Shown here piece by piece: positions 3,993 through 15,501 of a stretch of 16,788 nt of DNA (position 1 is the first letter of the stretch; each line of letters opens with the position of its first letter). The stretch is from a virus (taxonomy: Duplodnaviria; Heunggongvirae; Uroviricota; Caudoviricetes), in the IMG/VR virus record IMGVR_UViG_2667528074_000009. The stretch is one strand, 5' to 3'. The translations under genes and the position numbers were made by a program. The notes beneath the pieces are model-generated. The model was not told where the DNA came from and ran no database searches. It was given only the letters and a program-made list of their open reading frames with translations.

Positions 3993-4148
3993 TTACTCCT
4001 CAGGTTCGTAAGCTGTGAAGACAGCGACCTCCGTCTGGCCGGTTCGGATTCGTACCTCGCAGAGGTCTTTCCTCGTTACCAGTGCCGTCACTATGACGGT
4101 TAAACAGATGACGATCAGGGCGATTAACATCGCCTTTTGCTGCTTCAT
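3993..4148 (-). CDS. hokD: Hok/Gef-family type I toxin (HokD/RelF-like), 51 aa
   Basis: Translation MKQQKAMLIALIVICLTVIVTALVTRKDLCEVRIRTGQTEVAVFTAYEPEE matches the HokD/RelF sequence as I recall it. GGAG RBS upstream of ATG 4148; stop TAA 3995..3993. Missing from the ORF track because it is under 60 aa. Confidence 0.9.
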   Translation of the reverse strand: MKQQKAMLIALIVICLTVIVTALVTRKDLCEVRIRTGQTEVAVFTAYEPEE

Positions 4149-4206
4149 AGCCTGCTTCTCCTTGACCTTTCGGTCCGTAAGAGGCTAACCTATGTTTGTG
4201 TGGCAT
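4000..4206 (-). CDS. mok: mok-like overlapping reading frame (68 codons)
   Basis: A 68-codon ORF starts upstream of hok and overlaps it almost entirely in another frame, the arrangement of mok in hok/mok/sok loci. Coding status inferred from position only. Confidence 0.45.
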   Translation of the reverse strand: MPHKHRLASYGPKGQGEAGYEAAKGDVNRPDRHLFNRHSDGTGNEERPLRGTNPNRPDGGRCLHSLRT

Positions 4207-4260
4207 AGATTGGGCCTCAGATTAATGTTAAGCGTCCTGCAAGACGCGTAATGTTAACTG
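4185..4260 (+). ncRNA. sok: Possible Sok-like antisense RNA (approximate, unverified)
   Basis: In hok/mok/sok loci Sok is antisense to the mok translation-initiation region, which here is around 4200. A TTGACC -35-like hexamer lies at 4162-4167 and an imperfect hairpin at 4233-4248. Boundaries are guesses. Confidence 0.2.
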
Positions 4261-4486
4261 GGGCTTTTCTCTGTCTGCCTTACAGTGGCATGCCCGAGGC
4301 AGACAGCCTCAAGCACCCGCAGCAATCTTACCGACACCGATAAGAAAACGCTATTTTTTATTGCCAGCACCATCTATCCAGGCTAATTTATCTGCGTCAG
4401 AACGGCGCAATGCGCTCGCCTGAGATACGTTTACTTGTCATTGGTAACAACAGATAACGGCAATTGTTGTTTCTGTTTTGTTTCCT

Positions 4487-9604: not shown

Positions 9605-10030
9605 TTAGTGCATCACCACGGCATTTCCCGCCGGGCCACCACGATTCATCTGATCGAACAGAACGATCGCTGATGCAACGAAATCATCAATATCTTTCAC
9701 CAGCCGTTCCTTCGTCTCTACCAACTCCCGAAAATAAGCGGAACTGTGGCTGCGCATTCGGGCCACCAGCGGAGGCGGCATCGCTTTTTCGATCGCTGGT
9801 AACAACGCCTGAATTTTTTTAACCGCATCAGGAGTGTCTTTCTCCACCCAGCGGAAAATTTTCTGGGTGTTACGGCCCAGGGCTTCAGGATGGCTGTCGT
9901 CGTACAGTTCCGGGAACGTCATACCCAGTTCGAAATACGCTTTGGTAATTTTCGCAGCCGGTACTTTCTCGCCGTCCGGATGCGCCCAGGCATTCATCGC
10001 CATGCGGATGTGTTCATGCTTGATTTTCAT
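9605..10030 (-). CDS. YdaT-like (CII-analog) regulatory protein, 141 aa
   Basis: Begins MKIKHEHI..., length and position immediately downstream of the Cro-like gene match the Rac YdaT family. AGGAG RBS 8 nt upstream of ATG 10030; overlaps the Cro-like 3' end by 17 nt. Family call from memory. Confidence 0.55.
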   Translation of the reverse strand: MKIKHEHIRMAMNAWAHPDGEKVPAAKITKAYFELGMTFPELYDDSHPEALGRNTQKIFRWVEKDTPDAVKKIQALLPAIEKAMPPPLVARMRSHSSAYFRELVETKERLVKDIDDFVASAIVLFDQMNRGGPAGNAVVMH

Positions 10031-10295
10031 GAATCAAGCTCCTGGAAAGTGGTTGTGTTAACGTTTGGGTATCTTCCAGCTCGGGCCAAATGTTCATCCA
10101 ATCAAAAGGCCGTAGTTGCTGACGTGTAACTTCACCATTACTAGCTCGCTCAATAAGGACACATAACGATGCCCCTAACACTTGACCTTTACTCAATGCT
10201 TTTCTTAGATAACCGATGCTAGTACCACACTCACATGCAAACATACGCTGTTCATCTGACGAAATAGAATTGAGAAATATTCTTAATTCTTCCAT
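10014..10295 (-). CDS. Cro-like HTH regulator (YdaS/DicC-like position), 93 aa
   Basis: Divergent from the repressor gene across an operator-bearing region; AAGGAG RBS 5-6 nt upstream of ATG 10295; HTH-like segment CECGTSIGYLRKALSKGQ. Confidence 0.6.
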   Translation of the reverse strand: MEELRIFLNSISSDEQRMFACECGTSIGYLRKALSKGQVLGASLCVLIERASNGEVTRQQLRPFDWMNIWPELEDTQTLTQPLSRSLIHENQA

Positions 10296-10321: not shown

Positions 10322-10389
10322 GAATACCTACAGGTAAACAAAAGTCAATACCCGTGGGTTGTTTACCTTGTGGTAATCGCCTCTATTAT
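10322..10389. promoter_or_regulatory. OR-like operator/promoter region: three TACC-N4-GGTA half-palindromes with divergent promoters
   Basis: Sites TACCTACAGGTA (10326-10337), TACCCGTGGGTT (10350-10361), TACCTTGTGGTA (10365-10376). Leftward promoter candidate: -35 TTGACT (complement of 10344-10349), -10 TATTCT (complement of 10322-10327). Rightward candidate: -35 TTGTTT (10360-10365), -10 TATTAT (10384-10389). Confidence 0.55.
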
Positions 10390-10395
10390 TTACCT

Positions 10396-10815
10396 ATGGA
10401 CAAATATGAATTTAGACGAAAGCAACTCATCAAAATTCGTGATGAGAAATGCGATGGTAAAGCGGTTAACGTGGCCAGAAAAATCGGCCGCGAGCCTTCT
10501 TATGTATCAAGAATGTTGTACCCAGAGGGGAAAAAAGGGAAAAAACGGATCGCTGATGATATGGTGGAGATTATCGAAGAATCCTTTGGGTTACCCAGGG
10601 GATGGATGGATGGTATCGTTTCATCATCAACGAACACAACCTCCAATTATGAAACAAGGGTTCTAACACCACGACAACGTATTTTTTTAGATCTCTTGGA
10701 CGAACTGCCAGAAAGCGAAGCGGATAACCTATTAAAAACTCTTGAAGAGAAAAAACAATATTACAATATGATCTACGAAGAAATCAGCAAAAAGAAAGCA
10801 CGAAACGCATCATAG
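10396..10815 (+). CDS. CI-type repressor (DicA-like), 139 aa, probably leaderless
   Basis: N-terminal HTH (GKAVNVARKIGREPSYVSRML); C-terminal LTPRQRIFLDLLDELPESEADNLL resembles the DicA C-terminus as recalled. ATG 10396 lies about 7 nt after the candidate -10 with no RBS. The ORF-track start at 10354 falls inside the operator/promoter. Confidence 0.7.
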   Translation: MDKYEFRRKQLIKIRDEKCDGKAVNVARKIGREPSYVSRMLYPEGKKGKKRIADDMVEIIEESFGLPRGWMDGIVSSSTNTTSNYETRVLTPRQRIFLDLLDELPESEADNLLKTLEEKKQYYNMIYEEISKKKARNAS

Positions 10816-11078: not shown

Positions 11079-11234
11079 ATGGATACTATCGATCTTGGCA
11101 ACAACGAATCTCTGGTGTACGGCGTGTTTCCCAACCAGGACGGCACGTTCACCGCTATGACGTATACCAAAAGCAAAACGTTTAAAACCGAATCTGGCGC
11201 GCGTCGCTGGCTGGAAAGAAACTCAGGTGAGTGA
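11079..11234 (+). CDS. ydfA: YdfA-like small protein (51 aa)
   Basis: MDTIDLGNNESLVYGVFPNQDGTFTAMTYTKSKTFKTESGARRWLERNSGE; GAGG RBS 6 nt upstream; length and sequence match Qin YdfA as recalled. Not in the ORF track (under 60 aa). Confidence 0.7.
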   Translation: MDTIDLGNNESLVYGVFPNQDGTFTAMTYTKSKTFKTESGARRWLERNSGE

Positions 11235-11235
11235 T

Positions 11236-11364
11236 ATGGATTTCGACACAATCATGGAAAAGGCTTACGAAGAATACTTCGAATGCCTTGCCGAAGGCGA
11301 AGAAGCTCTCAGCTTCAGTGAGTTTAAACAGGCACTTTCCAGTTCGACAAAATCTAACGGCTGA
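11236..11364 (+). CDS. ydfB: YdfB-like small protein (42 aa)
   Basis: MDFDTIMEKAYEEYFECLAEGEEALSFSEFKQALSSSTKSNG; starts 1 nt after the ydfA stop; length matches Qin YdfB. Not in the ORF track. Confidence 0.7.
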   Translation: MDFDTIMEKAYEEYFECLAEGEEALSFSEFKQALSSSTKSNG

Positions 11365-11393
11365 TAAGCGAAGCGGCACAGTGAGGAATCAGT

Positions 11394-11612
11394 ATGCAGA
11401 AACCAGAACCCGTCATCATCGCTCCAGGTTATACCGATGATGAAATTTACGAATGGATGATCAAGAAAGTTAAGGCGGTACAGGATCTGAAATGGGCCTG
11501 TGACTCCAGAGAACTGCAGGTCAAAAACCTGTCAGAACTGGATAAGGAAATTGCCGGTCTTACAGAGGCGGCATCATTGAACGTAGCCAAAGTGGCTGCA
11601 CACCTGCGTTAA
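11394..11612 (+). CDS. ydfC: YdfC-like protein (72 aa)
   Basis: 72-aa ORF with GAGG RBS 8 nt upstream; correct position and length for ydfC in the dicA-ydfABC-dicF-dicB operon. Confidence 0.65.
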   Translation: MQKPEPVIIAPGYTDDEIYEWMIKKVKAVQDLKWACDSRELQVKNLSELDKEIAGLTEAASLNVAKVAAHLR

Positions 11613-11631
11613 TATCAAGCCAACGAGATTA

Positions 11632-11814
11632 ATGATGGAAGAGACAGAACTTAAACACGTTATTGCCTTGCTTCTGGAAGATGCAAAACGCTTACATGAA
11701 CTGGAGCCCAATGCAGGCACAGAGGCCCGCATTTGGTTAGCAAAAAAATGCCTGGATAGTAAAAGTTTTCAGAAAGAAATAACAATCAGTTTTGAGAATT
11801 CGCCTCGTCTATGA
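11632..11814 (+). CDS. Hypothetical small protein (60 aa) within an insertion between ydfC and dicF
   Basis: Helical-looking ORF MMEETELKHVIALLLEDAKRLHELEPNAGTEARIWLAKK...; weak RBS; overlaps the 3' end of a convergent minus-strand ORF by 29 nt. Confidence 0.35.
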   Translation: MMEETELKHVIALLLEDAKRLHELEPNAGTEARIWLAKKCLDSKSFQKEITISFENSPRL

Positions 11815-12016
11815 ATTGTTGGATCAGATTTGCTAATTCAGTGGCATGTTTATCACCTGTGCTTTTTAAAGCATCTGTTACACAATCTGAGCGAAGTTCT
11901 GGCGGAAGTCTTGTTGCCATCAAAGCTATCGCGAGCTTAATGGCCCTTAATTCTGCATTTATTCCATCATGGGATAAATCATTATTAATAGTGGTTTTTA
12001 TTGTGTTCAAAATCAC
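11786..12016 (-). CDS. Hypothetical small protein (about 74-76 aa), antisense to the dicBF operon, in an AT-rich insertion
   Basis: Perfect AGGAGG on the minus strand (complement of 12017-12022). It abuts the GTG at 12016, so the true start is more likely TTG at 12010 (6-nt spacing). Product ...INNDLSHDGINAELRAIKLAIALMATRLPPELRSDCVTDALKSTGDKHATELANLIQQFIDEANSQN; visibly low GC. Confidence 0.4.
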   Translation of the reverse strand: MILNTIKTTINNDLSHDGINAELRAIKLAIALMATRLPPELRSDCVTDALKSTGDKHATELANLIQQFIDEANSQN

Positions 12017-12333
12017 CCTCCTGAGGGTTGTTAATTAAGGAGTTCTCCACGGGTCAGGTGGAGTGCGTGCGCCGGACACGGGTGAGCATCCGGCACTGAC
12101 AGTTTACTGAAAGGATATATCCCTGAAAAGTCAGGGCATAACGCGAAAGCGCACGGCGAAGTTCGTCTCACTGTACGGTGTCGTTAAATTTAATTCGACC
12201 GTGCGCTTCCGGTTGTGGCACTCCGCGAAATGGCGCGGCGGTAAGTATGGCGGGGTTTCTCCGTTCCTCGCAAATGCCCACCGGGTTGTCAGGTTGACCA
12301 TACGCTTAAGTGACAACCCCGCTGCAACAACCC

Positions 12334-12390
12334 ATGTTGATTACCTTTTGGCGGCATCAGTTTCATTGCTGGCTGATGTCCGCCCTTTTT
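12334..12390 (+). ncRNA. dicF: DicF-like small regulatory RNA
   Basis: Lies 185 nt upstream of dicB. Conserved GGCGGCATCAGTTT core and terminator hairpin GGCGGCATCAG/CTGATGtCCGCC followed by TTTTT; downstream sequence AAAGTGAATTTTGTGATG...GGTGAATGCGGCT.AGCGCACGCG matches the K-12 dicF-dicB spacer as recalled. The 5' end is approximate. Confidence 0.55.
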
Positions 12391-12575
12391 AAAGTGAATT
12401 TTGTGATGCGGTGAATGCGGCTCAGCGCACGCGGAACAGTTAAAAAAGTGATCGGTACTCCGTATTTGTTTTATGGAGTTGGTTTCCCTGTATTCCGGCG
12501 TTAATTGTTAACTGGTTAACGTCACCTGGAGGCACCAGGCACCGCATCACAAAATTCATTGTTGAGGACGCGATA

Positions 12576-12764
12576 ATGGAAACGTTATTACCAAACGTTA
12601 ATACGTCTGAAGGTTGTTTTGAAATTGGTGTCAGAATCAGTAACCCTGTATTTACTGAAGATGCCATTAATAAGAGAAAACACGAACGGGAGCTATTAAA
12701 TCAAATATGCATTGTTTCAATGCTGGCCCGTTTACGCCTGATGCAAAAAGGATACTGGCAATGA
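12576..12764 (+). CDS. dicB: Cell-division inhibitor DicB (62 aa)
   Basis: METLLPNVNTSEGCFEIGVRISNPVFTEDAINKRKHERELLNQICIVSMLARLRLMQKGYWQ is near-identical to E. coli DicB as recalled; same length (62 aa). Confidence 0.9.
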   Translation: METLLPNVNTSEGCFEIGVRISNPVFTEDAINKRKHERELLNQICIVSMLARLRLMQKGYWQ

Positions 12765-13041: not shown

Positions 13042-15501
13042 ATGCGCACTGATAAAGAAGAATTTGCATTATATTGTGAAGCAAAAAATGACAAAGTCAG
13101 AAAACGCCTTGGAATTAAAGGTGGTTTTTACTGGACTACAGCAAAAAAATTATCTGTTGCCATCTCCCGCTGCATTACCGCAATGGATGACAACGATTAT
13201 GATGAAGACGACTTTAAAAAACCCGTCCGCGTCCATTTACCCGTTGTGAATGACCTTCCACCTGAAGGCGTGTTTGATACTGAATTCTGTAACCGTTACG
13301 AAAAAGGCGGGGAAGATGGCATCACAATGGTATTTATCGCGCCCTCACCCTCTGCGCAGGACAAACCAGCCAACACTGACAATACCAACGTCAACGGCGA
13401 AGACATGACTGAGATTGAGGAGAACATGCTCCTGCCGGTTTCAGGTCAGATTCTGCCTGTTCGATGGCTGGCACAGCACGGCAGCAAAAAACCGATCACA
13501 CACGTTTCGCGGGACGAACTGCGCGCATTACATAACGCACAGGATGAAAAACTTCCCGCCGTTACCGCGCTGGCTATCTCAAATAAAGCAGCGCAACTCG
13601 AACCGCTGGAGATTCGCGATCTCCACAAACTGGTGCGAGACACTGACAAAGTTTTCCCCGCCCCCGTAAATTCGGACCTGGGACTGATAACCTCTTTTAT
13701 CGAAGCATACCTGGACGCCGACTACACCGATCGCGGTCTGCTGACAAAAGAGTGGATGAAAGGAAATCGTGTTTCGCGTATCACCCGTACGGCTTCCGGT
13801 GCAAATGCCGGTGGCGGGAACAAAACCGATCGCAATCCGAATTTAGTACACACCTTCGATACGCTGGATGTGGAGATTGCAGCAGCCACACTTCCGATGG
13901 ATTTTAATATTTATGAAATTCCGGGCAGCGTTTATCGTCGCGCAAAAGACATCGTCCTGAAAAGAGAAAGTCCGTTCAAAGAATGGTCCGCAGCACTTCG
14001 CGCAACCCCGGGTATTCTTGACTATTCCCGCGCCGCTATTTTTGCACTTATCCGGAGCGCCCACCCTGAGTTTTATCACTACCCGGGACGCCTTCAGGGG
14101 TATATCAACGCCCACTTAACGGAGACTGATCACGAGAACCCCAGCAAGGAAACTCTCGCTGCTGCACGACATACACCGGAAAAGGATATCCTGGAAGAAG
14201 TTAACCGCGAACTGGCTGCTGAACGCGAAACAGAAGAAGAAAAAAATAATGAGGAAAAATCACAACCGTCTGACGCAATGGCAGATGAACAGGCAACGAC
14301 TACTGAAGCAATGGGACAGGATACAACTGAACATCGCCAGGACACACAATCGCTGGATACTCAGGCACAGATAAATCCGGTTAATCAGGTAAAAGTTACC
14401 GCTGTCGAAGTAAACAAAATTATGCAGGCAGCCAATATCAACCAGCCTGATGCCGACAAAATACTGGCAGTCCATCGCGGTGAGTTCGTTGACGGAATTA
14501 GCGACCCGAATGATCCGAAATGGGTTAAGGGGATTGAAACCCGCGATTCTGTGAACCAGAACCAGCCCGAATCGGAACAAAACGACCAGAAAGCGGAACA
14601 AAACAGCCCAAATGCGTTACAAAACGAGCCAGAAACGAAACAGCCTGAACCAGAAGAGCAACAAGAACCGGAAAAAGTCTGCACCGCCTGCGGTCAGACC
14701 GGCAGCGGCAACTGTCCTGACTGTGGCGCGGTGATGGGCAACGCAACATACCAGGAAACATTCGATGAAAAAAATCAGGCTGAAGTTCAGGAAGATGATC
14801 CGGAGGAAATGGAAGGCGCTGAACATCCGAACAATGAGAATGCTGGTAACGATCAGCATCACACCAGCGATAGTGAAACTGGCGAGGCGGCAGATCCCTT
14901 AATTGCGGTGAACGGTCATCACGTTATCACATCCACCAGCAGAGTGTGGATTCACCTGTCGGTCGACCTTGAAACGATGGGAACAAATCCTGATGCGCCA
15001 ATCAACTCTATTGGCGGTAAATTTTTTGATCCGGCAACCGGAGAGATGGGGCCTGAATTCAGTAAAGCTATCGATCTGGAAACCTCCGGCGGAATCATCG
15101 ACCGTAAAACAATAAAGTGGTGGGCGAAACGATCACGCGAAGCACAATCCGCTATTTTTACCGATGAAATCTCGTTAGATGTTGCTCTCCGGCTATTCAT
15201 AGAATTTATCGAAAAAAACTCCGGCGGGTGTTTTGTCCAGGTATGGGGAAATGGAGCCAACTTCGACAACGTAATTTTACGCCGTTCATATGAACGGCAG
15301 GGGATCCCCTGCCCATGGCTTTACTACAACGATCGCGATGTACGCACAATCGTTGAACTGGGTAATGCCATTGGCTTTGATGTCAGAATGGCTATTCCAT
15401 TCGAAGGCGTACCCCACAATGCGCTGGACGATGCCCGTCACCAGGCAAAACAAGTTTCAGCAATCTGGCAAAGACTGATCCCGCGTCAGGCTGATTTTTA
15501 A
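13042..15501 (+). CDS. Large early-left-operon protein (819 aa) with C-terminal DEDDh-type 3'-5' exonuclease domain, acidic low-complexity linker and CxxC-N9-CxxC zinc ribbon
   Basis: C-terminal motifs VDLETMG (Exo I), WGNGANFDNVIL (Exo II) and HNALDDARHQA (Exo III); central region about aa 380-620 is rich in E/D/Q/N/T; CTACGQTGSGNCPDCG around aa 545-560; GAGG RBS 8 nt upstream. Occupies the slot of ydfE (truncated in K-12 Qin). Confidence 0.75.
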   Translation: MRTDKEEFALYCEAKNDKVRKRLGIKGGFYWTTAKKLSVAISRCITAMDDNDYDEDDFKKPVRVHLPVVNDLPPEGVFDTEFCNRYEKGGEDGITMVFIAPSPSAQDKPANTDNTNVNGEDMTEIEENMLLPVSGQILPVRWLAQHGSKKPITHVSRDELRALHNAQDEKLPAVTALAISNKAAQLEPLEIRDLHKLVRDTDKVFPAPVNSDLGLITSFIEAYLDADYTDRGLLTKEWMKGNRVSRITRTASGANAGGGNKTDRNPNLVHTFDTLDVEIAAATLPMDFNIYEIPGSVYRRAKDIVLKRESPFKEWSAALRATPGILDYSRAAIFALIRSAHPEFYHYPGRLQGYINAHLTETDHENPSKETLAAARHTPEKDILEEVNRELAAERETEEEKNNEEKSQPSDAMADEQATTTEAMGQDTTEHRQDTQSLDTQAQINPVNQVKVTAVEVNKIMQAANINQPDADKILAVHRGEFVDGISDPNDPKWVKGIETRDSVNQNQPESEQNDQKAEQNSPNALQNEPETKQPEPEEQQEPEKVCTACGQTGSGNCPDCGAVMGNATYQETFDEKNQAEVQEDDPEEMEGAEHPNNENAGNDQHHTSDSETGEAADPLIAVNGHHVITSTSRVWIHLSVDLETMGTNPDAPINSIGGKFFDPATGEMGPEFSKAIDLETSGGIIDRKTIKWWAKRSREAQSAIFTDEISLDVALRLFIEFIEKNSGGCFVQVWGNGANFDNVILRRSYERQGIPCPWLYYNDRDVRTIVELGNAIGFDVRMAIPFEGVPHNALDDARHQAKQVSAIWQRLIPRQADF

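Follow-up and report, generated by a model that had tools for sequence, protein, structure and literature searches.

A small antisense gene and its leader at a polymorphic slot between ydfC and dicF in a Rac/Qin-like lambdoid prophage

Lambdoid morons are accessory genes with their own expression signals, which lie between the genes of an otherwise syntenic operon and are often expressed from the prophage. In Rac, the superinfection exclusion gene sieB is oriented against the early-left operon in which it lies. A description of the Qin dicBF operon was reportedly given by Faubladier in 1990. This operon has the order ydfABC-dicF-dicB-ydfD (Balasubramanian 2016, PMC5069750). Here we analyze the interval between ydfC and dicF in a window (the whole stretch of 16,788 nucleotides) that covers the early part of a lambdoid prophage of the Rac/Qin type.

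Besides the replication genes, the leftward, PR-type operon of this prophage carries a YdaS/Cro-like gene (10014-10295) and YdaT (9605-10030), together with a Fic/DOC gene and a hok/sok locus. At 10354-10815 there is an HTH gene of the DicA/CI-like kind, and the rightward, PL-type operon comprises ydfA, ydfB, ydfC, the interval under study, DicF, dicB, a ydfD-like gene, a RecE-like exonuclease and an integrase. As in the Qin-type dicBF operon, ydfA (11079-11234, plus strand; Pfam DUF1391, 99 bits), the ydfC homologue (11394-11612, plus strand; PHROG 1744, E 1e-28), dicB (12576-12764, plus strand; Pfam DicB, 130.8 bits) and the ydfD-like gene (plus strand; Pfam DUF1482 (YdfD), 72 bits) follow each other in this order on one strand. 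The DNA identity to K-12 Qin is 84-87% on both sides of an indel (87% up to position 11614; BLAST), ydfC being the last gene shared with K-12 before it. The hok/sok-type locus, a type I toxin-antitoxin system at 4146-4318 on the minus strand, matches the Rfam sok family (RF01794) over its full length with 109 bits, and the exonuclease (819 aa; 13042-15501, plus strand) joins an Exonuc_VIII N-terminal region to a C-terminal Rv2179c-like 3′-5′ exoribonuclease domain through a long acidic low-complexity linker.

To the right of the interval, a DicF variant with its intrinsic terminator is found at 12335-12391 on the plus strand (Rfam RF00039, 34.1 bits, E 2.6e-5). It misses the gathering score of 48 bits, the terminator hairpin (12353-12380, followed by a T run) being conserved and the 5′ seed being different, with UGUUGAUUACCUUUUGGCGG in place of UUUCUGGUGACGUUUGGCGG. 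The same variant is carried by E. coli A8 and VL7S7, and its target range may differ from that of K-12 DicF. An STnc100-like leader of dicB follows at 12383-12608 on the plus strand (Rfam RF02076, 34 bits, also under the gathering score); an element of this kind is also present in Salmonella phage 118970_sal3 (3642-3836, minus strand), on the promoter side of the antisense gene of that phage.

The homology with K-12 Qin stops at 11614 and restarts at 12026 (BLAST), so that, from these break points and the K-12 junction sequence, the extra segment is 11615-12025, i.e., 411 bp against 18 bp in K-12. A previous sequence-only reading had counted an insertion of roughly 600 bp within a gap of about 720 bp as extra DNA, had placed a GC-rich, hairpin-dense stretch inside it, and had given a ydfC-dicF separation of about 130 bp in K-12. 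These estimates have to be revised: the insertion has the limits just given, and the K-12 gap measures ~340 bp, from the end of ydfC at 1647065 to the start of dicF at 1647406 (U00096.2). Since the K-12 gap has this length and the K-12 homology restarts at 12026, the hairpin stretch lies outside the insertion. The region 12026-12334 is the ordinary K-12 spacer: among 5426 complete E. coli genomes, more than 4400, K-12 being one of them, contain it with an identity of 88-94%. The same reading had correctly seen that AT-rich DNA was added within the dicBF operon: the GC content is 39.7% in 11615-12025 and 37.8% in its minus-strand ORF, against 47.4% in the whole window and in ydfA-C and 55% in the spacer. 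It had also held that its proposal would fail if relatives carried the same interval without a conserved ORF, and here the outcome is divided: relatives do have 12026-12330 without any ORF, and in 11615-12025 the minus-strand ORF is conserved. For annotation, the interval is thus not one insertion, and K-12 has the cargo-less form of the locus.

The extra segment contains two ORFs that converge. The plus-strand ORF of 60 aa, which had already been noticed, is located at 11632-11814, and its N-terminal 39-48 aa form a conserved domain, matches to PHROG 30817, 12693 and 2982 covering residues 2-49 only. This domain corresponds to the C-terminal half of 133-aa proteins of other prophages (L031 and L003), and the homology to L003 (E. 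coli SW070917) is limited to 11646-11749. The last ~20 aa are encoded by cassette DNA, because the variable cassette (see below) spans 11750-12012. The annotation of the ORF varies, E. coli M8 having a CDS here and SE11 a pseudogene, and judged from these alignments it is probably a truncated form.

The minus-strand ORF encodes an acidic protein (pI 5.1) of 74 aa. The gene occupies 11786-12010 (the ORF extends to 12016), starts with a TTG codon at 12010, and its last 29 nt overlap the convergent plus-strand ORF. The length of about 74 aa, the convergent orientation, the low GC content and the AGGAGG ribosome binding site (12017-12022) are as the sequence-only reading had described them. The same CDS is annotated by PGAP in E. 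coli A8. The protein matches PHROG 7249 (E 2.7e-19, residues 1-70) and PHROG 36251 (E 1.9e-17), both of which carry the label "unknown function". An exhaustive HMMER scan of 1.8e9 representative proteins gave few relatives, of 73-97 aa, and a profile search of 5.8e9 proteins gave 16 clusters, from E. coli, Salmonella, Yersinia, Arsenophonus and gut metagenomes, so that among these 5.8e9 proteins the family is confined to Enterobacterales. The sole match in a family-profile scan of genome contigs, to Mycobacterium, was judged to be spurious. Across E. coli, Salmonella, Yersinia and Arsenophonus the identity is 34-61% at constant length, with a G-x3-(E/D)-L/I-R-A-L/I-K-x-A-x2-L-x-A-x-K/R-I/L-P core. 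Between the gene of the window and that of L014, six synonymous and no non-synonymous differences were counted, and the dN/dS was 0-0.3 in four of five pairs (three of them at 0.18-0.30), the fifth pair, with few changes, giving 0.77. The family is under purifying selection, and, as judged from its conservation, the minus-strand ORF is a genuine gene.

The AlphaFold2 model of the 74-aa protein has three helices (residues 14-33, 42-49 and 54-73) with moderate confidence (pLDDT 74). Foldseek found no structural neighbour in PDB and BFVD, sequence searches of Pfam, NCBIfam, PDB and PADLOC gave nothing informative, and no PADLOC defence family was matched at E≤1. A type I toxin-antitoxin (hok/sok-like) antisense pair was considered and rejected, the protein being hydrophilic (GRAVY -0.30) and no Rfam match being present in 11300-12334; the sok match of the window lies outside the interval, at 4146-4318. 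The allele itself, carried by E. coli A8 and ETEC1746 among others, is rare, with four complete and three truncated copies in the 5426 complete E. coli genomes. In E. coli M8 (L005, 2353-2937) a deletion of ~360 bp has taken some of the spacer together with the 5′ half of the gene and has spared the plus-strand 60-aa ORF, so that these mouse-derived strains carry a natural knockout of the cargo gene.

The surroundings of the homologues were then compared in Salmonella phage 118970_sal3, E. coli contigs, Yersinia, metagenomic prophages and Arsenophonus. In each of these contexts the homologue is the sole gene on its strand; at its 3′ end it runs 25-80 nt into a convergent gene, and on its 5′ side it is flanked by 360-870 bp of non-coding DNA. 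In the seven lambdoid contexts its distance from the CI/PL end of the early-left operon is one to three genes, and in Arsenophonus it lies in a different operon. In line with the earlier suggestion, the antisense gene resembles an independent cargo gene.

Comparison with prophages that have both flanks in common delimits the variable cassette proper to 11750-12012; e.g., the homology with L003 ends after 11749 and returns at 12013. On the 5′ side of the antisense gene, many prophages share a common minus-strand leader, GTGCCGGATGCTCACCCGTGTCCGGCGCACGCACTCCACCTGACCCGTGGAGAACTCCTTAATTA.CAACCCTCAGGAGGGTGA(A)ATG, which corresponds to 12096-12008 of the window. A pattern scan of viral contigs, together with the loci gathered earlier, yielded 132 copies of this leader. 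In 74 of them (56%) the leader is K-12-like, with neither a Shine-Dalgarno (SD) sequence nor an ORF, and in the remaining 58 its junction with a small ORF falls precisely on the start codon. At this place an antisense gene, which had been called unusual, is therefore not a rare architecture, and for SE11, O157:H7 and further strains RefSeq already has the antisense ORFs of the slot as hypothetical proteins. The cargo ORFs belong to at least six unrelated families, with seven to eight alleles: the 74-aa allele of the window; a divergent relative from that family, of 73 aa (MTSKNV...); a 92-aa protein (MDKKQIEALQ...); two related 91-aa proteins that are 28% identical to the latter; the 77-aa protein (MLKSTLIAK...) of O157:H7; a 69-aa protein of phage phiSTEC1589-Stx1c, unannotated there; and a 73-aa protein of phage phi367. 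None of the cargo proteins matches a known family. With PADLOC, four cargo proteins other than the 74-aa one gave no significant match (a 91-aa protein has a weak match to BrxA, E 0.014), and hhalign found no relationship between the 74-aa family and the 92-aa cargo. In E. coli SW070917 (L003, 1847-1935, minus strand) the 92-aa cargo gene is frameshifted, and RefSeq has only a 76-aa internal ORF, so that some database "hypothetical proteins" at the slot are truncated calls. As read from these alignments, a shared leader placed before at least six unrelated families of small ORFs is the main new result of this analysis.

Related phages differ in whether they have the segment between these two genes, and its base composition is unlike that of its flanks (39.7% GC), both of which are properties of morons; an own terminator, conversely, is not found, and the 74-aa gene overlaps the plus-strand ORF by 29 nt. 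No minus-strand terminator-like site lies between the stop at 11786 and ydfC (11394-11612), the nearest candidate being at 11296-11277, within ydfB. We would class the slot with the morons, with an unusual layout of constant leader and variable ORF.

The leader itself has several conserved parts, all on the minus strand. The SD sequence (12017-12022) lies 6 nt before the TTG codon and is present in all cargo alleles and absent from K-12. A CUCCU motif at 12038-12042, which is conserved in all leader variants, is predicted to pair with it, both in the MFE and in the centroid fold. Further upstream, two hairpins (12045-12063 and 12071-12094) travel together with the antisense cargo genes: this 50-nt element precedes seven to eight different small ORFs, and in phage phi367 it is the only conserved part of the spacer, directly 5′ of the minus-strand 73-aa gene. 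A candidate sigma-70 promoter at 12101-12129 consists of a -35 TTTTCA (12129-12124), a 17-nt spacer and a -10 TAAACT (12106-12101). It matches 8 of 12 consensus positions, below the cutoff of 9/12 of the scanning tool, which did not call it, and both hexamers are nearly invariant in 128 leader copies. The start predicted from it, at ~12094, coincides with the first base of leader hairpin 1 (12094-12071), and the predicted 84-nt 5′ UTR (z=-3.7) would fold into the two hairpins plus the CUCCU:AGGAG anti-SD/SD pairing. The antisense reads over ydfC in K-12 RNA-seq (see below), though few, are such as a leftward start in the spacer would produce, and they lend the candidate promoter indirect support.

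A third hairpin, CCCTGA-AAAG-TCAGGG (12121-12136), overlaps the candidate -35. Its arm variants CCC/GGG and CTC/GAG are compensatory, and in the commonest one a G-U pair would form on minus-strand RNA only. The hairpin is presumably not a boxB/nut site, since the boxB of lambda has a different stem and loop, and no boxA was seen by eye. The Salmonella and Yersinia phage homologues have a different leader, in which promoter-like hexamers overlap a hairpin; because of this, the leader hairpins may have either an RNA or an operator role. Since most copies keep the leader without an ORF, it may instead be conserved for a role on the sense strand, in the DicF precursor. No leftward transcription start site within the spacer was found in the supplements of Adams 2021, and the late-region sRNAs of the Pas sRNA preprint were set aside as irrelevant to the slot.

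The reading that we favor, with a probability of about one half, has two parts: 12026-12334 is the normal, long untranslated dicBF spacer of Qin/Rac-like lambdoid prophages, and 11615-12025, AT-rich and missing from K-12, would be a cargo slot of the moron type, expressed in the lysogen. The right third of the spacer (12212-12332) would be a conserved structured module of the DicF precursor, and its left part (~12017-12130), read on the opposite strand, would be the leader, with the candidate promoter, the two 5′ hairpins, the anti-SD and the SD. From this leader the 74-aa gene would be transcribed leftward, as one allele of a polymorphic slot, the K-12-type leader driving no ORF. In the lysogen, where a DicA/CI-type repressor would hold PL off, a weak constitutive leftward promoter would give the cargo mRNA, so that the small helical protein would be a moron product of the lysogen. 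Since the gene lacks a downstream intrinsic terminator and overlaps the convergent ORF, transcription of the cargo would enter ydfC, where it would collide or pair with leaky PL transcripts and so help to silence the toxic dicF and dicB. Upon induction, strong PL transcription would override the leftward transcription. What we infer about promoter use, expression and protein function enters this scheme together with a mechanism deduced from position and orientation. The earlier suggestion of an effect on dicF/dicB expression is thus plausible, by way of convergent transcription. As for the protein, our guess, made solely from its position and orientation, is that it most probably excludes superinfecting phages, acts against phages in another way or modulates the host. 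In a broader form, which we put forward only tentatively and regard as somewhat doubtful, enterobacterial lambdoid prophages would have an undescribed, hypervariable antisense cargo slot, with a constant riboregulated leader, interchangeable lysogen-expressed exclusion or host-modulating proteins, and leftward transcription as a safety lock on dicF/dicB (kil-type) functions.

The structure of the spacer bears on the most probable alternative. All five stem-loops that had been pointed out (12045-12063, 12071-12096, 12121-12136, 12222-12238 and 12283-12319) are present. Folding, which had been proposed as a check, gave for 12026-12334 a structure more stable than those of dinucleotide shuffles, with z=-3.3 on the plus and z=-4.2 on the minus strand. 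The proposed search of RNA family models, conversely, gave no Rfam match in 11613-12334 at gathering or permissive thresholds, the only matches being DicF and STnc100, to the right of the interval and both under the gathering score. RNAalifold on 80 spacer variants predicted a long-range helix between 12147-12160 and 12194-12208, with one compensatory pair (G-C to A-T, at 12155/12200); the divergence among these 80 variants is too small for the G-U vs C-A counts to be decisive about the strand of the 5′ spacer. The 3′ module (12212-12332, plus strand) has hairpins at 12223-12238 and 12283-12319 and a possible pseudoknot (12245-12250/12298-12303). In eight sequences, the second hairpin and the possible pseudoknot show one compensatory pair change each, and the G-U pairs of the module favor the plus strand. 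This module is conserved alone in P1, cdtI, Stx2c phages and pPE4, each time directly 5′ of a DicF-type hairpin and terminator. In P1 (L034, 1201-1354) it is the "dicF-like region" of GenBank, just downstream of the C1-controlled Pban promoters. Actinobacillus phage vB_Apl-pPE4 (L036, 2500-2900) has an E. coli-type spacer module with 83% identity and a tandemly duplicated DicF variant, which would reflect either an odd host assignment or a recent transfer.

These data make 12212-12332 a candidate cis-acting processing or antitermination element of the DicF precursor. Taken further, the spacer as a whole would be a cis-acting sense RNA, i.e., a processing guide or a put-like antiterminator that acts past the DicF terminator, and the antisense use of the leader would be incidental. 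This is possible, with clearly lower odds than the reading we favor. It would account for the position of the module downstream of early promoters in P1 (Pban), cdtI and pPE4 and directly 5′ of a DicF-type terminator, for the compensatory pairs and plus-strand G-U pairs, and for dicB and the recombination genes being located beyond an intrinsic terminator. It does not, however, fit the 5′ hairpins, which travel with antisense ORFs even where the 3′ module is missing, as in phi367; moreover, the module belongs to no Rfam family, and homology to the HK022 put sites was rejected, the match to putL being of only 9 nt and the sequence and two-stem pattern of put being absent. This alternative bears on 12212-12332 more than on the antisense gene, and it can be compatible with the two-part reading.

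A second alternative would give the function to the antisense transcription itself, as an insulator against read-through into dicF/dicB, with the ORFs as passengers. In K-12, the antisense reads of total RNA-seq amount to 7.2 RPM over ydfC (sense 3.1), 0.08 over dicF and dicB and 0.34 over ydfB, all low counts, and the dsRNA captured by p19 is enriched over ydfC (PMC7373196, Tables S1b/c). This pattern suggests an unannotated leftward transcript from the ydfC-dicF spacer even without cargo, and, with the leader intact in the 74 copies that lack SD and ORF, K-12 among them, and the cargo proteins mutually unrelated, it speaks for such an insulator. A passenger ORF, however, would hardly have a dN/dS well below 1 and a length conserved across genera, nor a strong SD in every cargo-bearing copy, and the same antisense arrangement recurs in operons without dicF/dicB, so that we consider this alternative unlikely.

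It is less likely still that the cargo acts in the early lytic phase, as an anti-defence factor made from its own constitutive promoter at DNA entry, before the PL transcripts. Counter-defence loci are typically hypervariable and encode small acidic helical proteins, as does this slot, and the slot lies among the host-takeover genes of the early-left operon; its orientation, however, opposes PL, so that expression would drop just as the lytic programme starts, and in the general libraries searched the cargo has no similarity to known anti-defence proteins. A neutral mosaic junction, i.e., recombination debris of lambdoid prophages with chance ORFs, is disfavoured as very improbable, since the truncated, chimeric plus-strand ORF with its tail from cassette DNA, the loss of half of the minus-strand gene in E. 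coli M8 and the rarity of the 74-aa allele are set against purifying selection on the 74-aa gene, an architecture that recurs in unrelated phages and precise start-codon junctions across seven to eight alleles.

The structural facts, namely the limits of the indel, the real gene, the conserved antisense architecture and the shared leader with swappable cargo, are solid. If the two-part reading of spacer and cargo slot is true, one platform at a defined position would express small, uncharacterised prophage proteins from at least six unrelated families, one of them in O157:H7, and it would be easy to test these proteins together for phage exclusion or for an influence on induction. The strong conservation of the long untranslated dicBF region would then be explained as well, one part of it serving the opposite strand.

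Among the known systems, the Qin dicBF operon has the identical gene order and the same long untranslated region with dicF; the window differs from it by the additional plus-strand ORF and antisense gene between ydfC and the spacer, and by its DicF, which has a variant seed and does not reach the Rfam gathering score. The 3′ module resembles the HK022 put RNAs in being a structured RNA that closely follows early promoters and precedes a terminator, and differs from them in having no meaningful similarity of sequence or fold. The convergent-promoter interference modules (186 pR/pL, and the lambda oop and PaQ antisense RNAs) likewise have a weaker promoter that fires into an early operon and overlapping transcripts that can be cleaved as dsRNA, whereas here the antisense transcript encodes a conserved protein and the interference is our proposal. 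The cargo gene shares with Rac sieB a comparable position, the opposite orientation in a PL-type operon and an expected expression in the lysogen; there is no sequence similarity, and SieB is larger and membrane-associated, whereas the 74-aa protein is predicted to be soluble and helical, without a membrane segment. As with lambdoid morons, related prophages differ in having the cargo segment between common flanking genes; it deviates in GC content, would be transcribed against the operon, and has its own SD and a candidate promoter. Unlike them, the cargo gene has no terminator of its own and overlaps a convergent gene, and here the platform is constant, the ORF being exchanged precisely at the start codon, and the platform is kept without cargo in K-12.
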